Below, one piece after another: positions 45,283-48,273 of a stretch of DNA of 64,000 nucleotides. Position 1 is the first letter of the stretch. The number at the start of each line of letters is the position of its first letter. The notes below the pieces were generated by a model. The model searched no databases and was not told where the DNA came from. It was given only the letters and a program-made list of their open reading frames with translations. A program made the position numbers and the translations under genes. Source of the stretch: a virus (lineage: Duplodnaviria > Caudoviricetes); the IMG/VR virus record IMGVR_UViG_3300005440_000009, positions 1 to 64,000 of that record; one strand, given 5' to 3'.

Positions 45283-45561
45283 TTGGTCGTGCAACATAAA
45301 TACACCGCGGCGCTTCGTAAGGCCCTAGCTGAAGCTTGGTGTTCTTTTCATCGGGACTATCATCCGCTCGAGGCGTTCGATTCTTGCCGCGGGGTGCGGC
45401 AGCGATATTGCCGAGCGGGAAGGCTCGAATACATGCGCCAGCGGAGGCTCGTCACGGGCGAAGCCGCCAAACTCCGTGAGCGCTATCGGACCGACGAAGC
45501 CTACCGCGAGCGCTGCAAGGCCAGGGCGCGCGAGACGATGCGGGCCTTTCGGTCCCGATAG
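45283..45561 (+). CDS. degenerate zinc-finger protein (endonuclease VII-type N-terminus, no nuclease)
   Basis: C..HPLEAF..RYCRAG..Y.R pattern; opposite strand to neighbours; start uncertain. Confidence 0.35.
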   Translation: MVVQHKYTAALRKALAEAWCSFHRDYHPLEAFDSCRGVRQRYCRAGRLEYMRQRRLVTGEAAKLRERYRTDEAYRERCKARARETMRAFRSR

Positions 45562-45597: not shown

Positions 45598-47269
45598 TCA
45601 CTTCCACTGCGTCGACCTATCCACGCAAAACTCCTCTCCTTTGGCGCGCACCATCTGCTCGCGGACGCTCCGAGCGACCGCGGCGGCGAGCGCGGGCGGC
45701 ATGGCTTGGCCGATCTGCGACCATCGCGAAATCTTCGTTTTCCCCGCGAACACCCATCCTTCAGGAAACCCTTGAAGGATCGCCGCGGCGAGCTCGGAAA
45801 GGACAACCGCGTTCGGCTGCGAGAGGATAGAGCCCGATTCGGGGTGATGGCCCGGCGGCGGAATGCCGGCGCGCGTGGTGACGGTGGTCGACGGCCGGTC
45901 CCATGGCCATTCGACGACGCAGGCGCCTTGGGCTCCGCGGCCGTCGCCTTTGGTGGTGACGGTGTAGGAGGGTTCGTCGGGGCGGCTCATCGGGTGGCGG
46001 GCGTGCTCGAGGAGGACGCGCTCGCGACCGGTGCGCGACGCCGTCACGGTTTTGCCGGGCTGATTCGGGACGTGCTCGCGCGTCGAGCCGTCTTTGCCCC
46101 GAAGTCGCCCGCGGGTTTTGACGGTGCGACCGATTTTCGCAGCGGGCAAATGCGAAAGCGCTGCCTTTAACCGTGACCCACGGCTCGAGGCTCGTGACTC
46201 CGGGCAAGCCGAGGAGATGAGGCGCGCAGTGCGTCCGCTCCGGCCAGCGAATGCAAGGCCCCGCGAGGTGCCCGTACCAAAAGGGCCGGACGCGGTGTTG
46301 CGGTGTTGCGTGAGACTTACAACCAGCGCAAGCCGCGACCTCTCTTGCGGCCTTTGAAATGTTTTCGCATGTGCTCGGAATTGTCCGCGTAGAGTTCGAG
46401 GTTTTCTGGCGCGTTGTTTCCGCGATTTTCGTCGCGGTGATGTACAACTTCGCTAGCTTTAAGCTTTCGCCCGATAGCTTTTTCCATGTTGACTCGATGT
46501 TGTCGTTTGTACTTTCCGTCGACTCGGATTCGCACATATCCGCGCTCGTCGAAGCGCTTGCCTCCCTTCCAGTTTGCGTTCGCCGGCCCTTTGGCTCCGC
46601 CAAAAGCTCTTCCCACTTTTTTAGCGTTACATTGCCGACAATATCCGGTCGTATTGTCCTTGCCGAGTTGAACCCCGCAAGCAGCGCAGACTCCGTAGGC
46701 GTGCGCGCTCCTCTTCGGCGTATGCTTTCGGCAGTATCCCGAACGATTGTCGAAGCGGAGAGCGTGTCCACAAAGTGCGCATGATTTTCGCATAGTTCTA
46801 CCCAACCGAAATCCGCGGCATCGAGGCTCGCGTAGTCGAGCACGCAATACCCTTCTTTCGAAAGAAAGGTGCCGATCAATTCTTGGACGATCGGCCAGTT
46901 GTCGGCGGTGTCGAGTCCCGGAACGTTGCCGATGAGGTACGCGCGTGGCCGAAGGAGCGCGATCAATTCGCACGTCTGTCGGAGCATGTCGCGTTCGTCT
47001 TTGGGGCCGAGGCGTTTGCCGGCGAGCGAGTACGGCGTGCACGGCGGATCGGCGACGATCAAGTCGAGCTCCCCGTGCATTCCCCATCCGTCTTTCACCA
47101 TGCGCAGGAGATCGCGCACATCGATGCAGATGGGGCGGTGGCCGAGATTCTCTTCGTACGAGGCGACCGCATTCGGGTCCTTGTCGAACGCGAACGCGAA
47201 TTCGATGCCGGCGCGGCGGAAGCCCTCGGCCATCCCGCCGGAGCAACAAAATACTTCGATCGCTCTCAT
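45598..47269 (-). CDS. C5 cytosine DNA methyltransferase with a 166-codon insert and a +1 frameshift near 46167
   Basis: FCCSGG, DPPCTPYS, IGNV, DAADFG|insert|TPQHRVR; C-terminal LQGFP..QIGQAMPP lies in the +1 frame (45598-46149). Confidence 0.8.
46317..46793 (-). CDS. HNH homing endonuclease nested in the -1 frame of the methyltransferase
   Basis: own ATG at 46793 and TAA at 46317; CALC..YC, CAAC..YC; NWKGG..GYVRI..HRVNME..VVHHRDENRGNN..NL. Confidence 0.9.
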   Translation of the reverse strand: MRKSCALCGHALRFDNRSGYCRKHTPKRSAHAYGVCAACGVQLGKDNTTGYCRQCNAKKVGRAFGGAKGPANANWKGGKRFDERGYVRIRVDGKYKRQHRVNMEKAIGRKLKASEVVHHRDENRGNNAPENLELYADNSEHMRKHFKGRKRGRGLRWL

Positions 47270-48273
47270 TGCGGGTAACCGTCGAACGTACGCCCGTCGA
47301 GCCAGCGCCCTGCGAGTTTCTTCGTCGTCTTGCGCATGATGACGGCTTGCGCGAATGCCCACTCGCGCAGTGTCGTGTAGGGCTTGTCCGCAATCGAAGC
47401 GACGATCGGCGCATGGTTCGATGGGAGCCACGGCACGATCGTTCCGTCCGGGTAGACCCACAGATCGCCTTTCTTTGGAGGTCCCAAAACGGCTTGCCAT
47501 GCGCCCCACTGCTTGAAAAAGAATGGAAGGCGTCGCGAGGCGCATTGGTCCGCGAGGGAGAGCGGCCAAGCGGGATGCATCGGGCGGGCGCCGTGTCCGC
47601 TTTCGCCCCCGGCGATCACCCAATCGAGTGTCGACTCGAGGTGCTTTTCGATCGTCATCGGCCCGAGGAGCGGCTCGGCGCTCAAGAAGTGGATCGCGGC
47701 GGGCGTGTGCATCAAGTCGACGATCAATTCATCGAATGACTCCTGCCGCCCCGCCGAGCAGCCGAGCCAAACGTTTTGAAGCGGCCACTTGAAATCAGTG
47801 ACGTGCTTTTGCCACTCGACGCCCGCCATCTCGAACGCAGCTTTGCCGATCACGTCCCGCTCGCCATCCCGCGACTCGTCACGTTCCCAGTGAAACCAGT
47901 CTCGAGCTCGCTTCGTCCTCTTGGTCAGAATCTGAAACGTGTGCCGCGGGCAAGCGGCCATGACGCCGAAGACAGCTGCGATGTCTTCATTCGGGAGCGA
48001 CTCGTGGAAGAGATCGCTCATGGAGTCGACTAAGATCCGCCGCGGCGCTTTCCAGTGCAGGGGCGCGTCGAGCGCATCCGGCACGAGGCGCGCCATGCCG
48101 GCCCAGTCGACGCCGTGCTTTCCGATGCGTGTCAAGCCCGCATAGGCGCCGCCCGGCACGTCTTGCCGGCGGGCTTGGCGCATCGCATAGCAGTTATCGC
48201 AATCGGTGTTGACGCGGGAGCAGCCGCGCGTCGCGTTCCAAACTTCGTTCGTCCATTCGATTTTGGTGCTCAC
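47266..48273 (-). CDS. phage Gp37/Gp68 (DUF5131) protein
   Basis: MSTKIEWT..WN..RGC....CDNCYA, SMSDLFH, HTFQILTKR, SAEPLLG, DWVIAGGESG, PFFFKQWG. Confidence 0.9.
   Translation of the reverse strand: MSTKIEWTNEVWNATRGCSRVNTDCDNCYAMRQARRQDVPGGAYAGLTRIGKHGVDWAGMARLVPDALDAPLHWKAPRRILVDSMSDLFHESLPNEDIAAVFGVMAACPRHTFQILTKRTKRARDWFHWERDESRDGERDVIGKAAFEMAGVEWQKHVTDFKWPLQNVWLGCSAGRQESFDELIVDLMHTPAAIHFLSAEPLLGPMTIEKHLESTLDWVIAGGESGHGARPMHPAWPLSLADQCASRRLPFFFKQWGAWQAVLGPPKKGDLWVYPDGTIVPWLPSNHAPIVASIADKPYTTLREWAFAQAVIMRKTTKKLAGRWLDGRTFDGYPQ

Follow-up and report, generated by a model that had tools for sequence, protein, structure and literature searches.

We analysed a 64,000-nucleotide (nt) stretch, hereafter the window, of the phage record IMGVR_UViG_3300005440_000009 (77.6 kb in full, from IMG/VR), in which a C5 cytosine methyltransferase (MTase) gene on the minus strand, starting with an ATG at 47269, is interrupted by a 498-nt insert. 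We consider it probable that this insert is a hidden HNH endonuclease cassette of the ShiLan type, lying out of frame in motif VIII of the MTase, unspliced and translated through as a loop of the host protein. In what follows, L-labels denote DNA contigs and P-labels denote proteins from a representative library (1.8 billion representatives). The host frame is the MTase reading frame, and the third frame is the frame of the same strand that belongs neither to the MTase nor to the HNH gene.

The limits of the insert were set by comparison with the related phage contig L003, whose orthologue is an uninterrupted protein of 388 amino acids that reads DFGVPQHRVR. Aligned with this contig, the insert appears as an exact gap between DFG and xPQHRVR, and the host frame crosses it without a stop and resumes in register as TPQHRVR. 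The MTase sequence ahead of the insert is 82% identical to the L003 orthologue, and the window gene has the PF00145 motifs FCCSGGMAEG, DPPCTP, PQHRVR and QIGQAMPP, the last one in a shifted frame (see below). The insert begins with a Trp codon (TGG, after the host GGT) and ends with His-Ala, its final base being A, and its GC content is about 0.54 vs 0.65 for the rest of the MTase gene and its flanks. An HNH open reading frame (ORF) occupies 477 of the 498 nt and scores 33.7 bits against Pfam HNH_3 (gathering threshold 24.8); its two Cys4-type ribbons and its HH...N...N...H...H core are invariant in an alignment of five HNH homologues. Only 11 + 10 nt (21 nt) of the insert lie outside this ORF, and the third frame contains five stops. 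An earlier, sequence-only reading of the window had described a 166-codon insert splitting DFG-x-PQxRxR, a complete HNH gene in a shifted frame, an MTase frame that stays open and rejoins TPQHRVR, a third-frame TAA near 46460 (one of the five stops) and about 20 nt outside the HNH ORF, with no intron core and no intein termini. Each of these points held up against the alignment, the frame reading and the Pfam and Rfam searches.

The same arrangement was found in other phages. A profile-free search of the representative library with the window read-through translation returned seven MTases whose matches extend over the full insert (P0004, P0005, P0013, P0021, P0051, P0101 and P0127). IMG/VR was searched with an alignment of HNH proteins only, to avoid read-through bias, and the best match was L083, a phage of 40% GC with an ENV-type C5-MTase and an insert at the same site. 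All eight of these other carriers are complete single ORFs running from motif I through motif X with a homologous insert at the same site, and some pairs of carrier MTases are only ~30% identical to one another. The sequence-only reading had staked its case on homologous inserts lacking frequent host-frame stops, and we found none in the window or in the eight other carriers. For four of the seven library carriers the DNA was available (L077-L080); their inserts span 164-176 codons and contain a full HNH homologue in frame +2 and two to eight third-frame stops. The other three (P0021, P0051 and P0127) were compared as proteins. Together with the window and L083 this makes six copies with DNA, all with the HNH gene in frame +2 beginning 11 nt past the junction, and all with a lower GC content in the insert than in the host gene. 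In L078 and L083, a Shine-Dalgarno-like GGAGG precedes the HNH gene and is formed by the host Gly codon together with the first insert codons.

Comparison with free-standing HNH genes argues that the open host frame is maintained by selection. Among 68 other distinct free-standing HNH relatives from the IMG/VR search, not one has an equivalent frame without stops; this frame contains 2.6-6.7 stops per 100 codons depending on GC. In L083, the host frame has no stops vs 14 in the third frame, and a synonymous shuffle of its HNH gene gave P=0.003. On these grounds, and because the homologous inserts are all open, we dropped the explanation that the frame is open by chance. Since no free-standing relative is stop-free and all embedded copies are open, the nested HNH genes have been shaped, in both their amino acids and their codons, so that the host frame stays open. 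Between copies, identity is 36-60% in the HNH frame and 20-39% in the host frame, and the ratio of non-synonymous to synonymous differences per site (pN/pS) within the insert is 0.49-0.67 and 0.72-0.89, respectively. As the better conserved of the two, the HNH frame is the primary one for coding, and the host-frame peptide is its shadow in the middle part. The MTase flanks of the carriers have a pN/pS of 0.25-0.5, with no relaxed constraint seen; the corresponding substitution-rate ratio (dN/dS) between carriers is near saturation (pS 0.5-0.8) and only weakly informative.

At the two ends of the insert, the host frame encodes a Cys/His bracket that is present in all nine carriers (Table 1). 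In its 5' half, the His codon (CAY) persists even though the HNH residues encoded across it differ between copies (S/A/T, then C/R/Y). In its 3' half, the window's second Cys codon shares bases with the HNH stop codon, and the CxxC lies partly past that stop in L077 and wholly past it in L083. Because these codons are kept where HNH residues vary and beyond the HNH stop, they are under host-frame selection. An AlphaFold2 model of P0005 has a C5-MTase core with pLDDT 85-98, which Foldseek matches to M.HaeIII and M.HhaI (target-normalised TM ~0.7). In this model the insert ends are ordered (residues 153-175 at pLDDT ~80, residues 297-316 at 53-82) and the middle (176-296) is at ~30; the AlphaFold2 model of the window read-through resembles it, with ordered insert ends and a disordered middle. 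The CxxH...CxxC ends probably bind zinc and pin the ends of the loop together. A bolder extension, which we put forward tentatively and would not yet favour, is that the cassettes evolved a dedicated host-frame zinc clasp that ties the ends of a disordered read-through loop, allowing an HNH gene to live in a catalytic motif without RNA or protein splicing. If true, a third general route would join those of introns and inteins, with a parasite-encoded structural adaptation that benefits the host protein.

Table 1. Coordinates of the interrupted MTase gene, its insert and the downstream frameshift in the window
Feature	Position	Strand	Evidence or remark
C5-MTase N-terminal part, motifs I-VI, ends DFG	46805..47269	-	residues 1-155 match PF00145 positions 1-148, E 6e-24
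498-nt mobile insert, 166 host-frame codons, no stop	46307..46804	-	exact gap in DNA alignment with L003
Leader, 11 nt, from 5' junction to HNH start codon	46794..46804	-	same offset in window, L077, L078, L079, L080 and L083
HNH homing-type endonuclease gene, 158 amino acids + TAA, frame +2 relative to MTase	46317..46793	-	Pfam HNH_3 (PF13392)
Host-frame C-E-N-H, 5' half of proposed zinc clasp	46781..46792	-	G-x4-C-x2-H in 9/9 carriers
Host-frame C-A-G-C, 3' half of proposed zinc clasp, then x4 and junction	46319..46330	-	C-x2-C-x4-[TV]PQ in 9/9 carriers
MTase motif VIII segment (TPQHRVR...PWVTVK), frame of N-terminal part	46166..46306	-	83% identical to L003 residues 155-202; dN/dS 0.10
Homopolymer (T) run with one extra base, +1 frameshift in MTase	46166..46168	.	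single-base gap vs L003
MTase C-terminal part (target-recognition domain, motifs IX-X), shifted frame	45598..46164	-	PF00145 positions 270-322; 80% identical to L003 residues 201-377; dN/dS 0.24

The distribution of the insert is patchy and its similarity is incongruent with that of the host genes. L003 and about 45 other MTase relatives spanning the site lack it. Compared with P0051, the window insert is 44% identical and the N-terminal part of the MTase 35%; compared with P0004 and P0005, the insert is 37-38% identical and the N-terminal part 64-65%. The carriers come from uncultured soil, rhizosphere and other phages with 40-65% GC. At the +1 residue, the first after the insert, the window has T and five of the nine carriers have V; carriers of type A have T at this position, and 31 of 34 insert-free relatives have V. 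No contig in four runs joins across the insert as an empty allele, run X4 being without cover over 46268-46715. A scan of genome contigs with a single HNH protein returned only distant free-standing relatives, an extra viral scan with the L079 HNH gave one distant match, and an HNH word-index search gave only the window's own 99-amino-acid gene call and one weak match. A search for further copies in the same phage found none. Another protein of 289 amino acids, P0057, is a close MTase relative that leaves the family right after D-Y-G into unrelated sequence starting CPVAVRPALFMCREHW; possible causes are a fusion and an insertion of another kind at that site.

These data suggest the following course of events. 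A homing-type HNH cassette would have invaded the coding DNA of motif VIII (between DFG and VPQxRxR) of a phage C5-MTase. As the cassette is a multiple of three in length and stop-free in the host frame, the MTase could be translated straight through it. The resulting loop of ~165 residues would sit in the hairpin turn before the QxRxR strand, its middle shadowing the HNH gene, mostly free of constraint and probably disordered, and the x4-CxxH and CxxC-x4 ends would pin it so that the MTase fold closes. The HNH protein itself would be made separately, from an internal start, the ATG that follows the junction by 11 nt. Judging from its distribution, it presumably cuts insert-free alleles at the conserved site, and repair would copy the cassette in.

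The window MTase has GNV instead of ENV in motif VI (YLIGNVPG, region 46925-46933), and so lacks the catalytic Glu. The sequence-only reading had taken this as a reason to doubt the activity of the window gene. The substitution itself is there, but it does not single out the window gene, as the uninterrupted L003 orthologue also has GNV and the position is G in 24, A in 13, E in 4 and C in 1 of 42 clade members. Present in an uninterrupted orthologue and in a clade under purifying selection, GNV is by this comparison a clade-wide trait (the majority state) and no sign of decay in the window gene. That an MTase clade mostly has Gly or Ala for the motif VI Glu despite purifying selection raises a separate question, namely how the cytosine is protonated, or whether there is any methylation.

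A feature that the sequence-only reading had overlooked is a frameshift at 46166-46168. Here, ~140 nt downstream of the insert, an extra base puts the target-recognition domain and motifs IX and X in another frame. Because of this frameshift, the window allele probably makes no complete or functional MTase. The extra base is present in Logan contigs of three 2017 rhizosphere runs (X1, X4 and X5). A contig of the 2025 soil run X8 has one base fewer, and X8 also contains both insert junctions, so that another soil sample seems to have an allele that is in frame. The dN/dS relative to L003 is the same on both sides of the shift (0.21 before, 0.24 after), which indicates that the frameshift is a recent polymorphism. 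We rejected a programmed +1 frameshift at 46166, since the site lacks a known signal for it and the extra base is missing from another allele. Broken versions of this MTase are not rare in assemblies: L034 and L035 are near-identical MTase relatives, of which L034 has a frame change in the variable region, and in L057 ~100 nt are added and the frame changes after residue 64.

Several points weigh against the view that the insert is a translated, tolerated loop. Both the read-through and the absence of splicing are things that we infer, and so is the meeting of the four Cys/His ligands in space, as the model shows ordered ends only. The HNH start codon (ATG+C) in part dictates the first Cys of the bracket, and the Shine-Dalgarno-like sequence ahead of the window HNH gene is weak. 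Seven of the eight other carriers were found via read-through protein calls, an ascertainment bias from which only L083 and a close-relative subset are free. The stop-depletion test against codon-shuffled controls that the sequence-only reading had proposed bore out its expectation in L083 but not in the window, whose own synonymous shuffle inside the HNH gene gives no host-frame stop in 16% of trials (P=0.16). The window's own MTase is frameshifted, decay of carriers could equally be explained by an insert harmful to the enzyme, and the in-frame allele of X8 is a single contig at depth 3. Carriers do decay: six contigs, represented by L163 (1824-2591) and L164 (1540-2307), hold the N-terminal part of the MTase followed by the first ~70 HNH codons (the zinc ribbons only), a remnant left by deletion of the remaining cassette and MTase sequence.

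The window's shuffle result, its frameshift and this truncated remnant would all be compatible with plain gene disruption, in which the HNH gene landed in a dispensable MTase, the open frame and the length are coincidental and the frameshift is ordinary decay; phage MTases are indeed often dispensable (PMC11855218). We nevertheless regard disruption as improbable, because none of the 68 free-standing relatives is open in the equivalent frame, all eight other intact carriers keep an ORF from motif I to motif X, including the 40%-GC L083 with its low shuffle P, the host-frame CxxC is conserved outside HNH coding, and the carrier flanks are without relaxed constraint. Just as improbable, in our judgement, is that the host frame is kept open for another reason, such as coupling of ribosomes to downstream genes or melting of the mRNA for HNH initiation, with an inactive read-through protein. 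The layout of the locus would suit coupling, in that the MTase stop overlaps the start of the next gene in L077, L078 and L080 and the window MTase start overlaps the upstream gene (ATGA), but this explanation leaves unaccounted for the invariant CxxH/CxxC bracket at fixed spacing, the motif VIII-X sequences maintained in all carriers, and the pN/pS of the carrier flanks.

Removal of the insert from the RNA, by an unrecognised self-splicing or host-assisted element whose core overlaps the HNH ORF, would make the open frame irrelevant. Phage group I introns commonly carry HNH genes, ORF-laden introns can escape Rfam models, and the insert is preceded by a T (GGT), the exon base also found at group I 5' splice sites. 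A look-up of the sequencing runs that contain this stretch listed no RNA run. Yet we found no Rfam match to group I or II introns (including RF00028) at E<=10, and the published ShiLan analysis likewise found no intron. With only 21 nt outside the HNH ORF and a final A instead of G, and since splicing would not select a stop-free host frame or host-frame Cys/His codons, we hold RNA removal to be distinctly unlikely. Protein splicing fares no better, as the host-frame insert matches no Pfam family, lacks a Hint domain, and neither begins with Cys/Ser nor ends in His-Asn. The sequence-only reading had left two routes for a splicing-free, dual-coded element, toleration as a protein loop and removal by ribosomal bypass. 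The first is supported by the eight open carriers, the closed frames of the free-standing relatives and the Cys/His codons. The second, in which ribosomes would hop 498 nt, we consider practically negligible. The bypass in T4 gene 60 covers a gap of ~50 nt between matched take-off and landing codons, with a stop after the take-off codon. Here the gap is ten times longer, there is no stop at take-off (GGT is followed by TGG) and no GGT landing codon at the 3' junction, and the conserved host-frame peptide ends and the selection on the host frame imply translation through the insert. Finally, for the window allele only, the 1-nt shift might yield not a pseudogene but a two-subunit enzyme, with motifs I-VIII on one chain and a separately started target-recognition domain with motifs IX-X on the other. 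M.AquI is a naturally split C5-MTase of this kind. The position of the shift between motif VIII and the variable region, a TTG start at 46149 and the dN/dS of 0.24 still found in the C-terminal part are consistent with such a split, but the upstream frame has no stop near the shift and runs on for ~134 junk codons to 45761, L003 and all carriers have single ORFs, and an allele without the extra base exists; we judge this split very improbable.

Out-of-frame nesting of an HNH gene has been published before (PMC11855218); the C5 enzyme, the motif VIII site and the Cys/His bracket set the family described here apart. The closest precedent is the ShiLan domain of mycobacteriophages, where an HNH gene lies out of frame within the gp65-type DNA methylase (PMC9957025, Gosselin et al, 2023; PMC11855218, Arsenault, Gosselin & Gogarten, 2025). 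In both cases a phage DNA methylase is invaded at conserved residues, the insert falls between codons and leaves the host frame stop-free, and an HNH gene with zinc ribbons nearly fills the insert in the third of the strand's reading frames, counting the host frame as the first. Both also lack signs of an intron or intein, are patchy among close relatives, have invaded alleles with T at the +1 residue, and have AlphaFold models in which the loop is held away from the enzyme. Moreover, the window HNH is 43% identical over 91 amino acids to the HNH inside Mantra gp64 (tblastn). The two systems differ in the host, which is a DPPY-type methylase in ShiLan and a C5-MTase (PF00145), invaded at motif VIII, here; in the start codon (GTG at +18 there, ATG at +11 here); and in insert length (202 codons there, 164-178 here). 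The CxxH...CxxC bracket is found here, whereas Mantra lacks it and has a duplicated host motif, EPxVVARKP. ShiLan carriers are actinophages, whereas those found here are uncultured phages, and a tblastn search of cultured phages with the L080 HNH and P0013 found no carrier. Furthermore, selection for the open frame was tested here against a null, which was not the case in PMC9957025 or PMC11855218. Mantra gene 64 (L082:1350-3674, Mycobacterium phage) also contains an in-frame LAGLIDADG segment, and its EPxVVARKP duplication stands on either side of the HNH insert.

A second hidden-HNH case is Pacc40 gp60 (PMC11855218), in which an alternative-frame ORF of ~160 amino acids with an HNH-like product lies inside a different phage methylase. 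The invaded enzyme there, a helicase-methylase fusion, belongs to another protein family and has its insert at another site; tblastn with the HNH or the MTase of the window family did not retrieve this case. Phages related to Pacc40 carry a similar HNH free-standing beside the methylase, as L036 and L050 do here. These two contigs are insert-free relatives with a free-standing HNH gene directly downstream of the MTase (L036, 1641-1808; L050, 4364-4522), which recalls the Tiff81/Sashimi arrangement in PMC11855218.

Compared with the HNH enzymes of group I introns (I-HmuI of SPO1; I-PfoP3I, PMC3428280), the cassette likewise places a homing gene of the HNH type in a strongly conserved stretch of a phage coding sequence and would likely spread by cleavage and repair of the empty allele; it differs in having no ribozyme core, no room for one, no Rfam match and an open host frame. 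Like an intein with a homing domain, the insert would be translated in frame with the host protein at a conserved site, but its endonuclease is encoded in another frame, it has neither Hint domain nor terminal residues, and the +1 residue is Val in about half of the family. Aeh1 nrdA/mobE and T4 gp39/gp60 are genes split by free-standing homing endonuclease genes. They too have an endonuclease gene without intron or intein inside a host gene whose function is retained, but there the host becomes two ORFs and polypeptides, whereas here it stays one ORF.

The earlier view was that homing endonuclease genes persist only within an intron, an intein or an intergenic site. The ShiLan papers proposed a fourth way, out-of-frame nesting with read-through, described in actinophage methylases only and without a selection test (PMC9957025; PMC11855218). 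Our results suggest that the same strategy arose or spread in C5 cytosine MTases of uncultured phages of widely different GC, and the host frame is shown here to be kept open against a measured null. The Cys/His bracket would provide a concrete, mutable handle on how an insert of 165 residues is tolerated in a catalytic motif. There is also a consequence for annotation, as gene callers report one long MTase and the nuclease stays hidden.

The neighbourhood of the MTase gene also differs between the window and L003. Downstream of the MTase, an ORF of 92 amino acids (45283-45561, plus strand) is a shortened relative of a 143-amino-acid L003 protein (L003:4218-4649, minus strand); neither has a Pfam match. 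The L003 protein ends with an HNH-like H-G-H-H...C-A-K-C-H segment that is missing from the window ORF. Directly upstream of the MTase lies a DUF5131 (PF07505) gene of 335 amino acids (47266-48273, minus strand), whose stop overlaps the MTase start in an ATGA. This gene is missing in L003 between the same two neighbours and thus represents a second indel between the window phage and L003.

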